Shown: piece after piece, positions 25,388 through 55,897 of the stretch
Layout of the letters: each line of letters begins with the position of its first letter
How positions within the stretch are numbered: position 1 is the first letter of the stretch
Assembly (NCBI GenBank): GCA_947301965.1
Contig: CAMYUM010000004.1
Span: forward strand, 26,149 to 90,148
Reading direction: 5' to 3'
DNA: 64,000 bases
Origin: an uncultured Azospirillum sp.
Lineage (GTDB): Bacteria > Pseudomonadota > Alphaproteobacteria > RF32 > CAG-239
Made by a program: the position numbers and the translations under genes
Notes under the pieces: generated by a model
The model's database searches: none
Seen by the model: the letters and a program-made list of their open reading frames with translations, nothing else
Told to the model about the DNA's origin: nothing

Positions 25388-28153
25388 ATGGCACTATCTT
25401 GGAACGAAATCAGAAGCAGAGCTTTGGCCTTTTCAAAAGAATTTGCCGATGCATATTATGAAAAAGGTGAAACTCAAACATTTTACAATGAATTTTTTAA
25501 TGTGTTTGGAGTTAACCGTCGACGTGTGGCAACTTTTGAGGAACCGGTAAAAAAACTCGATGATAAACAAGGTTTTATTGATTTACTTTGGAAAGGTGTT
25601 TTACTCGTTGAGCAAAAATCAGAAGGACGAAGTTTAACCAAAGCAAAAAACCAGGCTCTTGATTACTTTCCAGGACTTAAAGAAAATGAACTTCCACAAT
25701 ATGTTTTGGCCTGTGATTTTCAAAATTTTGAACTTTATGATTTAGACAATAAAAAAGAATACAAATTTAAACTTTCCGAACTTTCCGAAAACATAGAACT
25801 TTTTGGTTTTATAGCCGGATATGAAAAAAAGGAATATACAGATTTTCAGCAGGCGAATATTAAAGCTTCTGAGTTGATGGGCAAGCTCTATGACCAATTG
25901 AAAGATAGTGGTTATGAGCAACATGATTCAGAGTTATTTTTGGTTCGACTGCTTTTTTGTATGTTTGCCGACGATACGGGTATTTTTGAACGTGATATAT
26001 TCAAACAACTGATTGAGCAAAGAACAAATATTGACGGTTCCGATACTGGAATGTGGATTGCTCAATTGTTTGATGTCTTAAATACACCGGTAGAAAAGCG
26101 ACAAAAAAATCTTGATGAGGATTTGGCTCAATTTCCGTATATCAATGGTTCGTTGTTTGACAAAACCGTTCGCATCCCCTCGTTTGACAGCAAGATGCGC
26201 AGAGCACTGCTTGATTGTTGCTACTACACATGGAATGGCGTATCTCCGGCTATTTTCGGATCGCTGTTTCAATGTGTTGCCGATAAGGAAAAACGGCGGA
26301 CACTCGGTGAGCATTATACTACCGAAAAAAACATTATGAAGACCATTTCACCATTGTTTTTGGACGAGTTGCGTGCTGAATTTGAAAAATTGAAATGCGA
26401 TAAATCAACCAATAAAAATGCCAGATTGAAAGAATTTCAACAAAAGTTGGCAAAACTAAAATTTTTGGACCCGGCCTGTGGTTGTGGAAACTTCTTGGTT
26501 ATCTCATATCGCGAACTCAGGCAATTGGAATTAGAAGTCTTAAAAGAACTTTATGTTAAAAAAGGGCAGATATATGAATTGTTTGATGCATCTCGTGTAT
26601 CTTTAATTGATGTTGATAATTTTTATGGCATTGAAATTGAGGAATTTCCGGCAAAAATTGCCGAAGTTGCCATGTGGATTTGCGACCACCAGATGAATAT
26701 TGAGCTTTCAAAAGCGTTTGGACAATATTTTGCACGAATTCCACTCAAAAAAACGGCACATATTCTTTGTGGTAATGCACTAACAACAGATTGGAAAGAT
26801 TTAGTTAAACCGGAAGAATTGTCATATATTTTAGGTAATCCGCCGTTTATTGGGGCAAGGATGAAATCTGAAGAGCAAGCCGAAGAAATGAAAAATATCT
26901 TTTACGATGTTAAGGGCTGTGGCGATTTGGATTATGTTTCAGCTTGGTATGTAAAGTCAGCAGAATATATAAAGAATACGAAGATAAAGGTCGCTTTTGT
27001 TTCAACAAATTCCATAACACAAGGTATCCAAGTCGGATTATTGTGGGGACATCTATTTACCAAATATGGAATTAAAATTCATTTTGCTCACCGCACATTT
27101 ATTTGGGATAGCGAGGCAAGCGGCAAGGCTCATGTTCATTGTGTCATTATAGGATTTGCTTGCTTTGATACGGATAAAAAACGCATTTTTGATTATCATG
27201 ATGTTAAGGGTGATGCCCATGAAATAGCAGTAAAAAATATCAATCAATATTTGATAGATGCCAAAGATATTACCATCTCTGCCAGAACAAAGCCGATTTG
27301 CAATGTTCCTGAAATGGGAATAGGAAATAAACCCATAGATGATGGTAATTATATTTTTACGACCGAAGAAAAGGAAAAGTTCTTACAACAAGAGCCAAAA
27401 GCAACCAAATTTATTCATCCTTTTATTGGTTCTGAAGAATTTATCAATGGTAAAATTCGTTGGTGCTTGTATTTAGGCAAAGCGGCTCCAAATGAATTGG
27501 CCCAAATGCCAACAGTGATAAGACTAATTAATAATGTTAAACAATTTCGCTTGAATAGTAAAAGTAAACCCACACAGATATTAGCAAACACACCAACTCG
27601 ATTCCATATAGAAAATATTCCAGATTCAGAATACATAATTGTTCCTCGTGTTTCAAGTGAGCGCAGAAAATATGTCCCTATGGGATTTTTAGATAAAGAC
27701 ATAATCACCAGTGATTCAGCTTTAATCATTCCCGATGCTACTCTCTACGAATTTGGTGTGTTAACATCCGTTATGCATATGACCTGGATGAAATATGTGT
27801 GCGGTAGATTAAAAAGTGATTACAGATACTCAAATAAGATTGTTTACAATAACTTCCCTTGGCCACTAGATCCAAGTGAAAAACAAAAAGAAAAGGTTAA
27901 GGAATTAGCACAAAAGGTGCTTGATGTGCGTGCCAAATATCCGGATTGTTCACTTGCTATTTTATATAACCCGGAAACCATGCCTGCAGATTTAACTAAA
28001 GCGCATAATGAATTGGATAAAGCCGTTGATGCTTGCTACGGTAAAAAATCTTTTGCTTCCGATGCAGAACGCATGGAGTTTTTGTTTAATCTCTACGAGC
28101 AATATACTGCCCCTTTAATAAAATCAAAAAATAAGAATAAAAAAATAGTGTAA
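25388..28153 (+). CDS. MmeI-like Type IIL/IIG single-chain restriction endonuclease-N6-adenine methyltransferase
   Basis: N-terminal PD-(D/E)xK-like IDLLWKGVLLVEQKSEG. SAM motif I FLDPACGCGNFLV and motif IV GNPPFIG. Long C-terminal TRD; 921 aa. Confidence 0.8.
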   Translation: MALSWNEIRSRALAFSKEFADAYYEKGETQTFYNEFFNVFGVNRRRVATFEEPVKKLDDKQGFIDLLWKGVLLVEQKSEGRSLTKAKNQALDYFPGLKENELPQYVLACDFQNFELYDLDNKKEYKFKLSELSENIELFGFIAGYEKKEYTDFQQANIKASELMGKLYDQLKDSGYEQHDSELFLVRLLFCMFADDTGIFERDIFKQLIEQRTNIDGSDTGMWIAQLFDVLNTPVEKRQKNLDEDLAQFPYINGSLFDKTVRIPSFDSKMRRALLDCCYYTWNGVSPAIFGSLFQCVADKEKRRTLGEHYTTEKNIMKTISPLFLDELRAEFEKLKCDKSTNKNARLKEFQQKLAKLKFLDPACGCGNFLVISYRELRQLELEVLKELYVKKGQIYELFDASRVSLIDVDNFYGIEIEEFPAKIAEVAMWICDHQMNIELSKAFGQYFARIPLKKTAHILCGNALTTDWKDLVKPEELSYILGNPPFIGARMKSEEQAEEMKNIFYDVKGCGDLDYVSAWYVKSAEYIKNTKIKVAFVSTNSITQGIQVGLLWGHLFTKYGIKIHFAHRTFIWDSEASGKAHVHCVIIGFACFDTDKKRIFDYHDVKGDAHEIAVKNINQYLIDAKDITISARTKPICNVPEMGIGNKPIDDGNYIFTTEEKEKFLQQEPKATKFIHPFIGSEEFINGKIRWCLYLGKAAPNELAQMPTVIRLINNVKQFRLNSKSKPTQILANTPTRFHIENIPDSEYIIVPRVSSERRKYVPMGFLDKDIITSDSALIIPDATLYEFGVLTSVMHMTWMKYVCGRLKSDYRYSNKIVYNNFPWPLDPSEKQKEKVKELAQKVLDVRAKYPDCSLAILYNPETMPADLTKAHNELDKAVDACYGKKSFASDAERMEFLFNLYEQYTAPLIKSKNKNKKIV

Positions 28154-50498: not shown

Positions 50499-51494
50499 AT
50501 GTCACATAGAGATCCGATGGAATGGGAAAGAGGAGCATTTCCTTTTTTAAAAAAGATTTGGTACAAAATAAAGTCGTCCAAACCGTTTACCGAGTTTCGT
50601 CATTCCAACTTAAACCCGTATCATCGCGGTGTTATGGAAGTCAAAGCTGATAGCTTGGAAGAGGCAAGAAAAATTGCTCGTCAGGAAATTGTCGAACGCA
50701 TAAAACATCCCGAAACCCAAAAAATCAGCAAACATAAGGCTGAAAAACGCAGTAGCCAAAGCAAAGGCATCGATTTTATTTATAACGGTGTTCGTTACAA
50801 TGTTGAACAAAAATGCTCCGTACAAGAAGAGTTTGAGCGTGACGGCGTAGTGTTGCGTGGAGCAGGTGATGTTTCCGGACGCATTCCGCGAGATAAAAAC
50901 GGTAAACTTGACTTATTGGCCGAAGAACCAATTGTTATGGCCATAATCCCGATTGAAGGTCCGGCATTAATCGGACACGTGTGCATGCAATACCAAGATG
51001 TTGTCGTCAACCGTCTTATTCCTTCTATCCATACTGATCCGTTATACCCAAAATACAAAAATGAGGCACGATACTATTTTGTTTATCCGAGCCAACTGGG
51101 TATTGAACCACACAAATTAAAACGAGAAATGGAAAAGCACAACATCAAATATGCTCGTAAAAGATACGACCTCTTAACCAACAATTGCGCCAAAAATGTG
51201 GCAGATATCTTAAAAAGAGTTGGTGTAAAAGACATAGACTTCTACGGTTGGGACGATGCCGGTCTGGTCTTTACCAATCCGGGGAACAATCCGTGGGGCA
51301 AAGGCGTGAAAGGTTGGTGTCTAAGACACGGTGTACATGTCAACCTGCAAGAGATGGAAGCTTATAACGAAGGTCATAATTTTACCGATGTCAAAGAGCG
51401 TCGCAAAGAAATGGACGAAACCCATCAACGATATGAACAATACAAAAAAATCAATCGCCAAATGTTGTTGCAAAAAAGGCAAAACAGCCGTTAA
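50499..51494 (+). CDS. Hypothetical protein with possible permuted papain-fold (His...Cys) domain
   Basis: AGGGGGA RBS. Candidate His (LIGHVCMQY) lies upstream of candidate Cys (YDLLTNNCAKNVADIL), as in PPPDE/LRAT-type folds. No signal peptide. Confidence 0.35.
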   Translation: MSHRDPMEWERGAFPFLKKIWYKIKSSKPFTEFRHSNLNPYHRGVMEVKADSLEEARKIARQEIVERIKHPETQKISKHKAEKRSSQSKGIDFIYNGVRYNVEQKCSVQEEFERDGVVLRGAGDVSGRIPRDKNGKLDLLAEEPIVMAIIPIEGPALIGHVCMQYQDVVVNRLIPSIHTDPLYPKYKNEARYYFVYPSQLGIEPHKLKREMEKHNIKYARKRYDLLTNNCAKNVADILKRVGVKDIDFYGWDDAGLVFTNPGNNPWGKGVKGWCLRHGVHVNLQEMEAYNEGHNFTDVKERRKEMDETHQRYEQYKKINRQMLLQKRQNSR

Positions 51495-51519
51495 TGGTGT
51501 GTGAAATACGGAGCAAAAT

Positions 51520-51927
51520 ATGAACGAAGCGATAATCAATTATCACGAACAACGTCGTCCTTTTGTAATTATCCCCGAAATCGGAATAATTTTAAGTCGT
51601 GCCGGCAAAGCTTTTGCTCACAACGAATTATTGCAAAATTGCGGTTTTTCTGAAGAGAAAGTCCATGAAATAATTCAAAACTATCCGCGAGGTTATTTTT
51701 TGAACAATCGACTGGTTATCTATCAGGGTGAAAATGTCGCAGAAGGAGAAAGCTGGGAATTAAAACCCGAAAATTACAAATTTGTTCGTAGCTTTTATCC
51801 GGATTTATGCCGCATTTTTGAGATTAATGCTAAAACCAAAATTTTTCTCGGTGTCAAACGCGGACGCCTCGGCGAGCTATGGCCGGTGGTCAACGAAGTC
51901 AGCGTAGATTTCTTTGCCGAAAAATAA
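51520..51927 (+). CDS. Hypothetical protein (135 aa)
   Basis: Starts 25 nt after the previous gene on the same strand; no motif recognised. Confidence 0.5.
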   Translation: MNEAIINYHEQRRPFVIIPEIGIILSRAGKAFAHNELLQNCGFSEEKVHEIIQNYPRGYFLNNRLVIYQGENVAEGESWELKPENYKFVRSFYPDLCRIFEINAKTKIFLGVKRGRLGELWPVVNEVSVDFFAEK

Positions 51928-52063
51928 GTTTTACTTTTCGTTATAAATCGTTTCCTTCAGGGCGAGGTTTTTACCGCTTTCCCTGACCATTGATGTTACA
52001 CCTTGCAAAATATTTATTTATGTGTTATAGACACTTCTACCAAAAATATATTTATGTCATATT

Positions 52064-52891
52064 ATGAAAAAACTTGTAGAAGTAGCTATATGCTACGATT
52101 TCGATGGCACTCTTGCAGCTGGTAATATGCAAGAATATGGTTTCTTAAAAAGACTTAACATCTCACCTAAAGAATTTTGGGCTAAATCCGATGCTATGGC
52201 CGCCAAATATAATGCTGACAACAACTTGTGTTACATGAAGTGTATGCTTGAGGAGGCAAAGGCCAGAAAGCAGGCTTTCAAACGGGAAGATTTTGTGGAC
52301 TGCGGCAAAGATGTAACCTTTTTCGAGGGAGTTGAAGAGTGGTTCGAAAGAATTAATGCGTACGCGCTTTCCAAAGGCATTTTGCTTTCTCACTACATCA
52401 TCTCTTCCGGTTTGGAGGAGATTGTGGAAGGCACAAAAATTGCCAAGCATTTCAAAAAGCTTTATGCATCAACTTTCATCTACAACGAGTATGGTGAAGC
52501 CGAGTGGCCGGCCAGGATTGTGAATTATACGGATAAAACACAATACCTGTTCCGCATTAACAAAGGTTGCCTTGACCCTTCTGACCGAAGCGTTAACGCG
52601 GTAATGTCTCACGATGACAGGCCGGTACCGTTCAGCCATATCATTTACTTCGGAGATGGGGATACAGATGTACCTTCCATGTCCATGGTGAAAAAGTTTG
52701 GCGGTTACGCAGTTGCCGTTTATCAACCCTATCGCTCAAAATCCAAAGCGAGAGCCAAGAAACTTTTTGAAGACGGCAGAGTCAACATCTATGCTCAGGC
52801 CGATTATTCCGCCGGCAAAAAAATTGACCGCTTTGTCAAAAATGTTCTCGGCAAAATTGCGTCTGATAAGAAACTTGAAAACTTCAAATAA
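52064..52891 (+). CDS. HAD-superfamily hydrolase (paralog A)
   Basis: Motif I YDFDGTL and motif IV GDGDTDVPS. Alignable along its whole length with 55037..55897. Confidence 0.75.
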   Translation: MKKLVEVAICYDFDGTLAAGNMQEYGFLKRLNISPKEFWAKSDAMAAKYNADNNLCYMKCMLEEAKARKQAFKREDFVDCGKDVTFFEGVEEWFERINAYALSKGILLSHYIISSGLEEIVEGTKIAKHFKKLYASTFIYNEYGEAEWPARIVNYTDKTQYLFRINKGCLDPSDRSVNAVMSHDDRPVPFSHIIYFGDGDTDVPSMSMVKKFGGYAVAVYQPYRSKSKARAKKLFEDGRVNIYAQADYSAGKKIDRFVKNVLGKIASDKKLENFK

Positions 52892-52907
52892 TTATGTCTG
52901 TTTTTAC

Positions 52908-52940
52908 AAAAAACCGTTGTCCGAAAGACAACGGTTTTTT
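52908..52940. terminator. Bidirectional rho-independent terminator
   Basis: aaccgttgtc-cgaaa-gacaacggtt flanked by an A-run and a T-run. Confidence 0.8.
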
Positions 52941-52965
52941 GTGTTTAATAAATTATTTTGAACTG

Positions 52966-52995
52966 TGGCTGGAGTGAGCTTGCGGTTCTCGAACC
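52966..52995 (-). repeat. Degenerate duplicate of the tRNA-Gln 3' end (putative att remnant)
   Basis: tggctggagtg is identical to 54903-54913 (CCA, discriminator and 3' acceptor strand). It is followed by gcggttctcgaacc, against gcaggattcgaacc in the tRNA. Confidence 0.6.
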
Positions 52996-53031
52996 AAATT
53001 TGATGATTTTTTGAACCTGCTAACTTCGGGA

Positions 53032-53052
53032 TGTTAGGAACCCGAGGTTAAG
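53032..53052 (+). repeat. 21-bp motif tgttaggaaCCCGaggttaaG, copy 1
   Basis: Matches 54182-54202 at 17 of 21 positions (cores tgttaggaa and aggttaa identical); ~110 nt upstream of ORF 53163. Confidence 0.6.
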
Positions 53053-53162
53053 TACATGTAAGTTTTTGACCATTATTTGTTAATGAATCAATTATTTATG
53101 TTGAGAGATTTACATTTGAATATAACATACTAGCATATTATAACATTCAGAGACTAAATAAA

Positions 53163-54173
53163 ATGAACCATAAGAACGAAGAATCTTTTCAGGAAGAATT
53201 ATGTATCCATTTTGATACAGATCAACATCAAATACCATTAGATGTCTTCTTAACGACAGGTATATCTATAAATAAAATATCAAAAGAATTTAGTAAAAAA
53301 TTTTTTGATAATAAATTAAATCCAGAGATTTATGTTGTTCCACCTGAAAATGGTGGTTTTTTGGAGATTTTGGATTTGATTGTATCAAATCACCCAGTAG
53401 AAGTTGCTGTATCAGGATGGTTTTTAAATTTTTTATCTGAGAGATATACAGATAATAGCCTTAAAGCTTGGGCGGATAAAACAGGGTGTTTAATATTTGA
53501 TGAATTAGAAAAAGAAATAAAGAGGATATTAAAGGCGAAAGATAACATGCTAATGGATGCCAAAATAGCACTAAAATTATATATGTATTCATTAAGTAAT
53601 TTTATTTTAGCAGATATTAATACTTTGAAAAATTGGAATATGACTCCAAGGGAATTCAGAGATTCTTTTGAGGCTAAAAACAATTTTTACGAAAGCTGTT
53701 TACAGCCTAATACAGGTATAAAAGGAGTTGGATGTTGTAGAAAACATTATTTTGCTGTAAAAAGAAATGAGTTTTCCAATCATATAACAAAATTACCTGC
53801 AAATGACGATGATGTTTATTATAAATTACAAAAAGTTATTATAACTAATCCAACTATTGTAGATGATAATACACCTTGGACAGGCAGACTTGTATCAAGC
53901 AACAAAAAAATAACATTTTATATGAAAGATGAAAATTTTAAGGATAAATTAATCAAGGGGTTATGTCCCCTCAAGTCAAGTAATCTAGATGATGAAATGC
54001 TAATATACTTTGAATATAGAACTGTATACGGAAAAAATCTCAAACCACGAGTAATCACTTCGGCAAATATTGTATATTCCTTTAATGAAAAACAATTAAT
54101 TCCAATTCCTGATGGACTTATGATTGAATTACCTCAAAAAGATGAAAATCCTGCACAAATGAAATTGTTATGA
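53163..54173 (+). CDS. Orphan hypothetical protein (336 aa), islet cargo
   Basis: Long uninterrupted ORF in very AT-rich DNA. No signal peptide, TM or catalytic motif recognised. Confidence 0.6.
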   Translation: MNHKNEESFQEELCIHFDTDQHQIPLDVFLTTGISINKISKEFSKKFFDNKLNPEIYVVPPENGGFLEILDLIVSNHPVEVAVSGWFLNFLSERYTDNSLKAWADKTGCLIFDELEKEIKRILKAKDNMLMDAKIALKLYMYSLSNFILADINTLKNWNMTPREFRDSFEAKNNFYESCLQPNTGIKGVGCCRKHYFAVKRNEFSNHITKLPANDDDVYYKLQKVIITNPTIVDDNTPWTGRLVSSNKKITFYMKDENFKDKLIKGLCPLKSSNLDDEMLIYFEYRTVYGKNLKPRVITSANIVYSFNEKQLIPIPDGLMIELPQKDENPAQMKLL

Positions 54174-54181
54174 TTTATGGT

Positions 54182-54202
54182 TGTTAGGAAACATAGGTTA
54201 AA
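54182..54202 (+). repeat. 21-bp motif tgttaggaaACATaggttaaA, copy 2
   Basis: See copy 1. A further gaggttaa lies at 54226-54233. ~160 nt upstream of ORF 54361. Confidence 0.6.
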
Positions 54203-54360
54203 ACAACTTTTATTTTTCGATAATAGAGGTTAATTTTTCTGCCCTGTATGAGTGATTTTATATAGGCTAATGTAATATGAACAATTATTACATTGTTTAT
54301 TGATATTTTACTATTGATAATTTATTATTGCTATAGAATTTAATTTTGAGGAAATGCAAA

Positions 54361-54744
54361 ATGTGGAATATTTTTATTGCTGTTGTTTTCGTGCTTATTT
54401 GTTATGAAACAAATAAATATCGCAAAGAAATATATCGACTTACAAATGAAAATTATAATCTTAAAAAAGAAAATGAAAAATTAAAAGTAGGTAGAACCGC
54501 CTATTCTATAGGTGATAAAATTGTATATTTTACCCCAGATGAAGATAAGCGATATGCAAAATGGCATGATTATTATTACTTTGACCACTGTAAAGAAGTA
54601 AGTCTAAGTGATGAAGAAGAATTGGATATTGTTATATCTGGTATCATAACAAACAAATCTAACCAACAAATTTTGAAAGAATTAATAGATAAAACTAAAT
54701 GCAACCAACAAGCTCTCGAAAAGAGAACAGAAGAGACTGAATAG
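54361..54744 (+). CDS. Orphan small membrane-anchored protein (127 aa), islet cargo
   Basis: ATG at 54361 with a GAGGAA RBS. N-terminal TM (WNIFIAVVFVLICY) then a coiled-coil-like NENYNLKKENEKLK. Confidence 0.5.
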   Translation: MWNIFIAVVFVLICYETNKYRKEIYRLTNENYNLKKENEKLKVGRTAYSIGDKIVYFTPDEDKRYAKWHDYYYFDHCKEVSLSDEEELDIVISGIITNKSNQQILKELIDKTKCNQQALEKRTEETE

Positions 54745-54864
54745 ATAGTAAAACTTCCCAACACCTTGATTTTCTTATCTTCTTTGTGAAATTAGTTCGA
54801 AGATTGTCTGGTGTAAGGCATATTTAGTATCAAACATTCGAACTCGCCGAAAGCCTTGCAAAAT

Positions 54865-54893
54865 AAAGAAAAAAGCCACCTAAAAAGGTGGCT
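54865..54893 (-). terminator. Rho-independent terminator downstream of tRNA-Gln
   Basis: agccacc-taaaaa-ggtggct, followed by a T-run on the minus strand (A-run 54865-54873 on plus). Confidence 0.6.
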
Positions 54894-54902
54894 TATCTGC
54901 TC

Positions 54903-54977
54903 TGGCTGGAGTGGCAGGATTCGAACCTACGAATGTCGGCACCAAAAGCCGATGCCTTACCACTTGGCGACACTCCA
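54903..54977 (-). tRNA. tRNA-Gln (anticodon UUG)
   Basis: The reverse complement reads TGGAGTG-TC-GCC-AAGTGGTAA-GGC-A-TCGGC-TTTTGGT-GCCGA-CATTC-GTAGG-TTCGAAT-CCTGC-CACTCCA-G-CCA. This is a cloverleaf with an encoded CCA and resembles E. coli tRNA-Gln. Confidence 0.9.
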
Positions 54978-55036: not shown

Positions 55037-55897
55037 TTATTTTTTGTGGGGTAGCTTTTTCTTATCTTCTTTTTCCTGCAAAACTTGCAAATCGCGCTCG
55101 GTCGCCAACTTTACCAAAATTGTTTTGATAACGGTGTCAATCTGTCCGTCTTCCGAATAATCCGCCGGCAGCGCAAAGTTAACTCTGTCATCGCTCAAAA
55201 GTTTGATTGCCTTGCGTTTGTGGTGGCTCTTCGGGCGATAAACCGCCACCGAATACCCGCCGTTTTTCTTAACCAGCCGCATTGACGGAATATCGGTATC
55301 TCCATCTCCCAGATAAATCATGCGTGAGAACGGTATCGGCCTATCTTCGTCGGGCATAAACTCATTTACCGCACGGTCTTCCAGCTTGCCCAGACCTTTG
55401 TTAATCTTTGACAGATATTGGGTCTTGGTTGAATAATTAACCACTCTTGCCGGCCAAATAGGATGTCCTTTGCTGTCATAGGCATAAGCACAGCCGAAAA
55501 CTTCCTTAAAATACTTGCGGATTGAGCAACCTTGAATAATTTCCTCATAACCTGATGAAATAATGTAGTGCTCAATATCAAGTTCCAGCCTTTTACCAAA
55601 ACGATTAATACGTTCAAACCATTCCTCCACGCCGTCATAATATTTTATGCCTTTGGCGCAGTCGGCAAAAACCTGTTTACTCAAAGGAATTTTTTTCTGC
55701 TTTGACATTTTTACGAAATAATACATGGAGCTTGTAATTTGGTCGGCATCGTTGTCATGCCACCATTGGTTAGCCTGTTTCCAAAAAGTCTTCGGTCTCA
55801 TCTTAAACAGCTGAATTAAGCCAAAATTCTGCATATCTGTTGTGCTTAAGGTGCCATCAAAGTCATAAACAAGCGCAACTTTTACTTTTTTTACCAT
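55037..55897 (-). CDS. HAD-superfamily hydrolase (paralog B)
   Basis: YDFDGTL, GVEEWFERIN, WPARVVNYSTKTQYL and GDGDTDIPS are shared with paralog A. Confidence 0.75.
   Translation of the reverse strand: MVKKVKVALVYDFDGTLSTTDMQNFGLIQLFKMRPKTFWKQANQWWHDNDADQITSSMYYFVKMSKQKKIPLSKQVFADCAKGIKYYDGVEEWFERINRFGKRLELDIEHYIISSGYEEIIQGCSIRKYFKEVFGCAYAYDSKGHPIWPARVVNYSTKTQYLSKINKGLGKLEDRAVNEFMPDEDRPIPFSRMIYLGDGDTDIPSMRLVKKNGGYSVAVYRPKSHHKRKAIKLLSDDRVNFALPADYSEDGQIDTVIKTILVKLATERDLQVLQEKEDKKKLPHKK

Follow-up and report, generated by a model that had tools for sequence, protein, structure and literature searches.

The 64,000-nucleotide stretch of contig CAMYUM010000004.1 from an uncultured Azospirillum sp., hereafter the window, contains a tRNA-Gln(UUG) gene on its minus strand, and at the 3' side of this gene lies a small AT-rich islet with two open reading frames (ORFs) on the plus strand, the larger of which encodes a 336-aa protein referred to here as X. 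ARAGORN, run on the 64 kb, returns tRNA-Gln(ttg) as the single tRNA gene, and the Rfam scan of the region has the tRNA as its sole match, both of which bear out the placement of the gene at 54903-54977 in an original prediction that was made from the bare sequence. The islet is bounded by an 11-nt repeat, TGGCTGGAGTG, of which the 64 kb contain exactly two copies, one at 52966-52976 and one at 54903-54913, both on the plus strand. It represents the complement of the 3'-terminal 11 nt of tRNA-Gln including the CCA, with the displaced copy in the same orientation. GC content falls from 0.40-0.48 in the flanks to 0.25-0.30 over approximately 52950-54800 (0.282 for the islet and 0.405 for the window), and the two ORFs between the repeats run from 53163 to 54173 (336 aa) and from 54361 to 54744 (127 aa). 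The repeat, the AT-rich interior and both ORFs are thus all as predicted. From left to right, the features of the locus are:

52064-52891, plus strand: HADa, a HAD-like phosphatase on the left flank (PADLOC PDC-S34 model PDLC05002, E 3.9e-116; Pfam HAD, E 1.3e-7)
52906-52942, no strand: bidirectional terminator-like hairpin 3' of HADa (16-bp perfect arms, dG -17.7 kcal/mol, z -6.2; kept in sibling contigs L012 and L014)
52956-52976, minus strand: displaced tRNA-Gln 3' end (52966-52976) with 10 nt of native flank (52956-52965), the distal att-like repeat (exact repeat, kept junction)
52977-53040, no strand: border segment with AGCTTGC, the T-arm-like GGTTCTCGAACC and a weak hairpin at 53020-53053 (dG -6.6, z -2.0)
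53066-53162, plus strand: promoter-like 5' region that moves with X (sigma-70-like hexamers within 53066-53136; homology from 53073-53077)
53163-54173, plus strand: X, 336 aa, a PDC-S42-like candidate defence protein associated with restriction-modification (RM) (PADLOC, AlphaFold, neighbourhoods)
54174-54360, plus strand: intergenic region with the second copy of a TGTTAGGAA motif (54177-54205) and a promoter-like site (54300-54328, TTGATA-17-TATTAT)
54361-54744, plus strand: ORF127, hydrophobic in an N-terminal segment and coiled-coil-like in another stretch (132 aa if read from a TTG further upstream)
54745-54865, minus strand: ancestral, non-cargo 3' flank of tRNA-Gln (homology to the corresponding flanks of loci L096 and L028)
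54873-54894, minus strand: intrinsic-terminator-like hairpin of the intact tRNA (9 pairs followed by a T-run; dG -10.1, z -4.8)
54903-54977, minus strand: intact tRNA-Gln(UUG), whose 3' end is the proximal repeat (ARAGORN ttg; Rfam tRNA, 62.2 bits)
55037-55897, minus strand: HADb, a paralogue of HADa (46% identity, BLASTP) on the right flank (PADLOC PDC-S34, E 1.1e-107)

The two hairpins that had been proposed are also found, one as the strong fold at 52906-52942 and the other as the terminator-like hairpin on the tRNA side at 54873-54894. Two details have to be redrawn. The stretch 52977-52995, which was read as a degenerate T-arm, is matched at least equally well by the GGTTCGACTACAAGCG segment of a repeat unit that accompanies tRNAs in related loci, and the islet does not fill the whole 1.9 kb assigned to it, since the last ~120 bp (54745-54865) are ancestral tRNA flank without cargo. 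Separately, a perfect 16-nt direct repeat, TTTTCTTATCTTCTTT, at 54770-54785 and 55057-55072 brackets tRNA-Gln and its terminator; the second copy is inside the 3' end of HADb, and the repeat may be due to chance, the sequence being pyrimidine-rich and of low complexity.

What, then, occupies this position in other strains of the same species? Sibling contigs, gathered by exact-protein look-up with the flanking genes, share the flanks HADa, tRNA-Gln, HADb and GlyRS at 96-98% nucleotide identity, and the alleles recovered (window/L015, L012/L013, L014 and L010, only five by our count) differ in what lies between. In the window and L015 these are the 336-aa and 127-aa genes. L012 and L013 hold 4.6 kb that encode a GHKL ATPase, two type II methyltransferases and a PD-(D/E)XK nuclease, a type II RM load, and L014 has a 370-aa gene of no assigned family and the beginning of a C5-methylase, recognised in the sequence by its DLFAGIGG motif. 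L010 is near-empty: a unit of ~175 bp is all that separates its left junction from the tRNA. The cargo alleles are all AT-rich (GC 0.28-0.32), and all have the AGCTTGC of the border segment in alignment, while the HADa protein is identical in L012, L013 and L014 despite their other cargo. Homology between the window and L012 ends at 53010 and picks up again at 54869, and that with L014 ends at ~52983; the window at 54175-54259 is 76% identical to an intergenic stretch of L014. The 3' side of tRNA-Gln is a polymorphic slot with alternative cargo per strain, and the earlier view of the site as a hotspot therefore stands, with sibling strains holding other loads, mostly RM genes, or almost none. 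An exact look-up with GlyRS for further alleles gave short contigs only, and the 80 GTDB genomes hold HAD homologues in many differing contexts and no straightforward empty site in other species.

The L015 contig, 1942 bp from a different sample, carries both window genes and terminates where the islet does, the pattern that a strain-variable bubble in an assembly graph would give. Over 53041-54744 it is identical to the window save for two substitutions, both in ORF127, whereas the borders have diverged, by 15 changes over 52984-53040 on the left and down to ~88% identity at the other end. There are no differences in the 1.1 kb that follows the 15-change stretch. With identical cargo set in diverged borders, the cargo must therefore have moved recently between diverged versions of the slot.

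Fundamental to the interpretation of the slot is the nature of its borders. The 21-nt junction ttttgaactgTGGCTGGAGTG, composed of ttttgaactg and TGGCTGGAGTG, is identical in the window, L010, L012/L013, L014 and L015, such that the fragment at 52966 is indeed conserved as an att-like border. In L010 the copy of the tRNA 3' end is longer, at 19 nt (TGGCTGGAGTGGCAGGATT), and the longer junction, tttctgacgatttttgaactgTGGCTGG, agrees at 28 of 28 positions with an intact tRNA-Gln of another species (L028), over its 3' end and the adjoining native flank. This match to a native flank means that the left copy is the original tRNA 3' end, which retains its native downstream flank as had been supposed. 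Comparison of L012 with L010 reveals a clean insertion bounded by the 11-bp repeat; in L012 the tRNA 3' end is present three times, and the number in sibling strains is two or three. The right end of L015 enters left-junction sequence, which implies a flanking repeat of at least 44 bp (33 nt of flank and 11 nt of tRNA), and the predicted empty junction of the slot is ttttgaactgTGGCTGGAGTGGCAGGATTCGAACC.

Could the repeat be fortuitous, and the AT-rich stretch simply a pair of fast-evolving native genes? In an AT-rich region 11-mers do recur by chance. Against this stand the presence and absence of the cargo across strains, the conserved junction with its 28/28 match to native flank, and the existence in unrelated islands of genes that are 80% identical to X in nucleotide sequence. 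The population data have already refuted the idea, which keeps next to no probability.

A second explanation does without site-specific integration, with the left fragment as a decayed tandem duplicate of tRNA-Gln and the cargo turning over by homologous or illegitimate recombination in the flanks. Such a history would suit the native-type flank that is found on both sides of the cargo, its proximal part (F-prox) on the left and the full flank (F) on the right, an arrangement for which several events or a duplication must be assumed. It would also suit the repeat in L012, which at ~65-75 bp spans the terminator and thus reaches beyond the tRNA sequence, and the failure to find an integrase, hotspots without identifiable mobilisation having been documented (PMC10121019). 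However, every copy is limited to the 3' part of the tRNA, either 11 nt or the 18-19 nt from T-loop to CCA, and such sharp limits are the signature of recombinase crossover sites and not of random decay. The clean L012 insertion with its 11-bp repeat, a like duplication of the 3' end at five different tRNAs in related species, and the same cargo within differing borders in two strains, which speaks against transfer by flank homology, all count against decay as well, leaving the decayed duplicate an improbable account.

The search for a recombinase was negative at each level. The two ORFs of the islet have no family-search match to any recombinase, no ORF of the window or of the same-species loci was matched in a phmmer search with eight tyrosine and serine recombinases, and a recombinase is missing from every allele and from the ~8 kb to its left and right. 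Together with the conserved junction, these searches support the proposal of an integrase-less islet bounded by a duplicated tRNA 3' end. With no recombinase in any allele, the islets may therefore be classed as att-bounded, non-autonomous cargo that resembles the cis-mobilizable elements (CIMEs). Of the hallmarks of an integrative island, the slot has tRNA-3'-derived repeats with native distal flank, presence/absence polymorphism at those repeats and deviant GC, the recombinase being the one that it lacks.

The locus is likely to have arisen by serial insertions at the tRNA 3' end that left recombinase-less, att-bounded islets. In this process DNA would have inserted into the 3' end of tRNA-Gln, most likely by site-specific recombination, restoring the tRNA and displacing the former 3' end, native flank included, to the distal border at 52956-52976. 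The insertion would have been repeated, giving sibling strains with several tRNA 3' ends and differing loads, and exchange between strains could depend either on a recombinase that acts in trans or on recombination within the conserved borders. At ~53041-54744, the cargo would then consist of a self-promoted gene for X, predicted to be cytoplasmic, and a hitchhiking, species-specific membrane ORFan of 127 aa.

The family of X was not recognised in the original prediction, which treated the protein as an orphan, yet it belongs to a superfamily that overlaps PDC-S42 and the function-unknown phage family phrog_3243. A word-indexed search gives a close clade of nine clusters at 62-79% identity, all 336 aa but one truncated at 236 aa, and an exhaustive profile search extends this to 292 representatives (from 50% clustering) at E <= 1e-3, mostly of 300-350 aa. 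A further search that started from the broad alignment, bounded by its candidate cap, contributed few additional homologues. In a hidden Markov model (HMM) search run without the PADLOC coverage and score rules, X itself matches two PDC-S42 models, PDLC05016 at E 4.4e-9 (residues 39-267) and PDLC05017 at E 3.7e-7. PDC-S42 models are matched by 51 (PDLC05016), 29 and 12 of the 138 superfamily members, and phrog_3243 by 59 of the 138. Judged by these profile matches, the link to PDC-S42 is solid at the superfamily level. The PDCs are 145 candidates embedded in BREX, DISARM and type I RM systems, untested according to their authors (bioRxiv 10.1101/2024.01.29.577857), and neither PDC-S42 nor PDC-S34 is named in the literature or in the supplements of that preprint. 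Pfam and NCBIfam give no match for X and its relatives (138 members) except for one RhuM fusion, and a sequence-profile search of the PDB with X gives nothing. No close relative of X is present among GenBank phages or the 2.9 million viral contigs of IMG/VR, and plasmids provide one weak Paracoccus match. In human-gut loci L150, L154, L159, L163, L165, L168 and L169, ORFs of ~127 aa situated ~2 kb upstream of a HAD homologue have weak profile matches to the X superfamily (E 1.6e-6 to 3.5e-5), and these may be fragments or a small-domain relative.

Six genomic contexts of X relatives are informative:

P0002, 79% identity to X: X-M.HaeIII-R.HaeIII block in four different islands, with integrases, HipA and McrBC near
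P0004, 67%: type III Mod-Res-X, with AbiE near
P0157, 24%: Mod-x-Res-X, with a 14-bp gap
P0012, 29%: HsdR-X-HsdS-HsdM, with overlapping ORFs
P0014, 28%: HsdR-X-HsdS-(AAA_15/DUF4276)-HsdM
P0011, 34%: RM not seen; X at the contig end, downstream side unread

The relatives of X are thus inside or beside type I, II or III RM operons in five of the six, and these neighbourhoods, along with the PDC-S42 overlap, support the earlier proposal of the larger gene as a plausible anti-phage candidate. At the nucleotide level, homology between the window and loci L001-L009 covers only the X gene and 86-90 bp upstream of it (53073/53077 to 54112/54166), X therefore travelling as a self-promoted single gene, and X genes have a lower GC content than their surroundings at every locus examined. 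Upstream of X homologues there is also a conserved inverted repeat, GACTCAA..TTGAGTC, with a T-run (L001 7900-7960 and L005 7915-7960). It separates the gene from the -35-like TTGTTA/TTGACG, has a degenerate counterpart in the window (53078-53112), and could be an insulating terminator or an operator.

A predicted structure adds to this picture. The AlphaFold model of X based on 138 sequences reaches a pLDDT of 85.2 and a pTM of 0.68, compared with an unusable pLDDT of 45 with the nine close homologues alone. It has an N-terminal alpha/beta part, a helical middle with lower confidence at residues 60-130, and a C-terminal beta-beta-beta-alpha-beta-beta arrangement at 218-307. This order of elements is that of the classical OB-fold. 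The C-terminal domain is accordingly a predicted OB-like fold, and most of the conservation falls within it, W239 being invariant and D256, F259, D277 and N308 nearly so, with H16 near the N-terminus. Foldseek searches of the PDB return SSB, Rim1 and uS17-type matches repeatedly, none at E < 1e-3, and the top of the BFVD ranking is occupied by full-length, uncharacterised phage proteins (E 4e-6 to 7e-4), with numerous SSBs below them. X has no evident catalytic motif and no recognisable enzymatic or toxin domain. X may serve as an accessory anti-phage protein in which the OB-like domain would bind nucleic acid, acting alone or backing up restriction.

Is X then truly a defence gene? It could instead be a gene of phages or other mobile genetic elements that shares islands with RM, for instance an anti-restriction or counter-defence factor, a regulator or assembly factor of RM, an addiction gene or a hitchhiker. 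The phrog_3243 matches of 59 of the 138 members, the uncharacterised phage proteins as best structural matches, the lack of an enzymatic or toxin domain, the untested status of the PDCs and the occurrence of X without an RM system in the window would all agree with such a role. On the other side, X is translationally coupled between hsdR and hsdS in two distant subfamilies and directly follows type III res in two others, the kind of embedding that has yielded validated defence genes (bioRxiv 10.1101/2024.01.29.577857). Its close relatives are missing from the viral contigs and GenBank phages, and the slot holds defence genes in other strains. A non-defence role is rather unlikely on this evidence, and the assignment of X as a true defence gene is itself tentative, at somewhat below an even chance.

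The smaller ORF of the cargo has a different distribution. Its relatives among 5.8 billion proteins amount to one other cluster, at 98% identity and located on L015, which is probably from the same species. Family searches with ORF127 gave no significant match, and tblastn against all other X-bearing loci, 13 with downstream DNA and four more without any, was negative. A plausible ribosome-binding site, GAGGAA, can be read from the sequence, and there is the promoter-like site at 54300-54328. The two genes had been proposed as one module, and a single two-gene system of a toxin-like, abortive-infection or defence type would accord with their common strand and spacing of 187 bp, with their moving together, near-identical between the window and L015, and with the membrane-anchor-like N-terminus of the 127-aa product, as in some effectors. 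However, relatives of X are single genes in non-tRNA contexts, an ORF127 homologue is found at none of the 13 other X loci with downstream DNA, and the neighbours of X vary by subfamily. ORF127 has its own promoter-like site and a single related cluster, and both of its differences from L015 are non-synonymous, which, in tiny numbers, gives no sign of purifying selection. A two-gene system is thus very unlikely, and ORF127 is treated as a lineage-specific passenger and not as a conserved partner of X.

The ~175-bp unit of L010 is one of a series of such units that lie directly 3' of tRNA-Gln, -Ser(tga), -Met, -Trp and -Gly in different related species. The copies are:

L010, 7994-8169
L012/L013, 12584-12761, minus strand
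L118, 13782-13953 and 13955-14127, in tandem
L046, 7070-7239
L045, 7170-7282, minus strand
L063, 4738-4872
L103, 1524-1703
L119, 10478-10651, minus strand

In the sense of the tRNA, a unit starts with a terminator and a hairpin whose 3' strand, with TTCGA, copies the T-stem of the local tRNA, continues with a conserved, GC-rich core (CTACAAGCGAAAGGCG..CGGAAG..CGCCGGTGAG...GAGCGCAGTGGAAT) and closes with a pseudo-copy of the last ~19 nt of its own tRNA. RNAalifold on seven copies gives 18 pairs, five with compensatory changes, the covariation term being weak, and Rfam has no family for the unit. The defence cargo of L012 lies within such a unit, and the window has no copy of the core, although 52977-52995 resembles the unit start. 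The unit could be a non-autonomous element or an att scar aimed at tRNA T-loops, and the units may represent the minimal form of the element that services these slots. Taken further, the islet would be the cargo form of an undescribed family of non-autonomous elements whose targets are the T-loop and 3' end of tRNA genes in gut Alphaproteobacteria, a cassette platform for which the left border of the window would be a unit that lost its core. This reading is a long shot. If true, programmable or trans-mobilised units would deliver defence genes, here a new RM-associated OB-fold immunity protein.

The TGTTAGGAA motif, with partly complementary arms, occurs before X (53020-53053) and after it (54177-54205), the second copy being 83% identical to 53029-53051 as a 23-nt direct repeat. 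A third copy is intergenic in L014 (2836-2865), and the left copy sits where identity to L015 begins. An attC-like, integron-cassette identity (a cluster of attC sites lacking an integron-integrase, CALIN) was considered for these hairpins and rejected: they are ~34 nt with weak folds (z -2.0 and -1.0), are not kept in L015, and belong to a motif that is not enriched in the window, and there is no IntI.

The flanking genes HADa and HADb are convergent, bracket the slot and the tRNA, and both match PDC-S34. Linkage of HADb to GlyRS is seen in L010 and, in another species, in L118. HAD homologues are widespread in gut Alphaproteobacteria, with 232 matches among species-representative genomes, and are within 2 kb of a tRNA gene (Ser, Gln, Val, Arg or Leu) in ~18 of 80 loci; the PDC-S34 HAD-like genes may be hotspot neighbours rather than defence genes. 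To the left of HADa a second presence/absence polymorphism covers 51500-51968 (469 bp, with a 135-aa ORF at 51520-51927), a segment that is present in the window and L014 and not in L012, L013 or L099. The adjoining 331-aa ORF (50499-51494) has weak PPPDE/papain-like matches round an 'NNC' motif (E ~0.01-0.04), and the 331-aa and 135-aa ORFs could be an effector-immunity pair. Further away, 25388-28153 on the plus strand encodes a complete MmeI-family type IIL/IIG RM enzyme with all five MmeI Pfam domains (E down to 6e-95), the sole RM gene among the ten large window ORFs scanned, most ORFs being outside the scan.

Taken together, the best joint explanation, considered moderately probable, is a strain-variable, att-bounded slot with non-autonomous cargo in which X is an accessory anti-phage protein. 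A number of observations weigh against it. For the borders, an exact repeat of 11 nt in the window alone is weak evidence: 10 of 100 shuffles have at least two matches to the 11-mer at no more than one mismatch, and ten further families of direct repeats, of at least 11 nt, are present in the AT-rich 3.1 kb. The 11-mer gains weight because it is the exact tRNA 3' end with CCA, because its junction is kept in four further independent contigs and because of the 28/28 match to the L028 flank. The tRNA-proximal border at 54745-54865 is native flank, which a single simple integration does not predict, and no single-event history of the locus could be made consistent. No cognate, tRNA-Gln-specific integrase is present among the loci fetched, no exact empty site or excised circle was seen within the species, and L010 is only near-empty, its link to HADa consisting of a 32-nt overlap. 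For X, every Foldseek PDB match has E > 0.01, the match to PDC-S42 is partial (residues 39-267) and to families explicitly untested by their authors, the sample holds only the six informative contexts, and in the window X is solitary, with the nearest RM gene, of the MmeI family, ~25 kb off.

What does such a locus contribute? To call it the best candidate for an undescribed module was an overstatement, as the locus type, a tRNA-linked defence hotspot, and the X family, as a candidate, have both been flagged by others. It does provide a defence hotspot in miniature, backed by population data, from an uncultured lineage of gut and rumen whose immunity is almost uncharted. X represents a compact, Pfam-less family of ~340 aa with an OB-like C-terminus that recurs within type I and beside type II and III RM systems, which makes PDC-S42 a sharper target, and the HAD-like flanks carry the caution that PDC-S34 genes may be neighbours of hotspots rather than defence genes. 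The findings extend current views and overturn none, and constitute an experimental lead of a fairly ordinary kind.

With respect to known systems, X is like PDC-S42 in matching two of its HMMs and in having relatives embedded in type I RM, as the PDCs were defined, but its clade is a divergent branch and the window copy is outside any RM, BREX or DISARM system. PrrC and RloC-type genes, which are embedded in type I RM loci, provide a back-up once restriction has been blocked, as in EcoprrI-PrrC. Distant relatives of X are similarly placed between hsd genes with coupled ORFs, which suggests a 'second line' logic. Unlike PrrC and RloC, X and its 138 relatives have no ABC-ATPase or anticodon-nuclease match in Pfam or PADLOC, X having instead a predicted alpha/beta domain, helical linker and OB-like domain, and a guard mechanism for X would be pure inference by analogy.

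The slot itself can be set beside two kinds of island. CIMEs are att-flanked, cis-mobilizable islands that have lost their integration and transfer genes (PMC6323972), and the slot resembles them in its direct repeats of the target 3' end, its want of recombinase and transfer genes and the tandem accretion in sibling L012. It differs in that no cognate integrative and conjugative element or integrase was found in the loci fetched, in an exact repeat that is down to 11 nt in the window, and in its location at a tRNA, CIMEs being known mainly from Firmicutes at protein-coding targets. The other kind is the defence hotspot, of which core examples are described in P. aeruginosa (PMC10250203); in E. 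coli 18 of 41 integration hotspots are at tRNA loci, and some tRNA-linked defence hotspots have no identifiable means of mobilisation (PMC10121019). As in these, constant flanks enclose alternative, strain-specific defence systems, here on five alleles, at a tRNA site with an AT-rich load. What sets the slot apart is its size of only 1.7 kb with one candidate gene, its uncultured gut or rumen alphaproteobacterial host, and its position between two HAD-like paralogues that are themselves PADLOC candidates.

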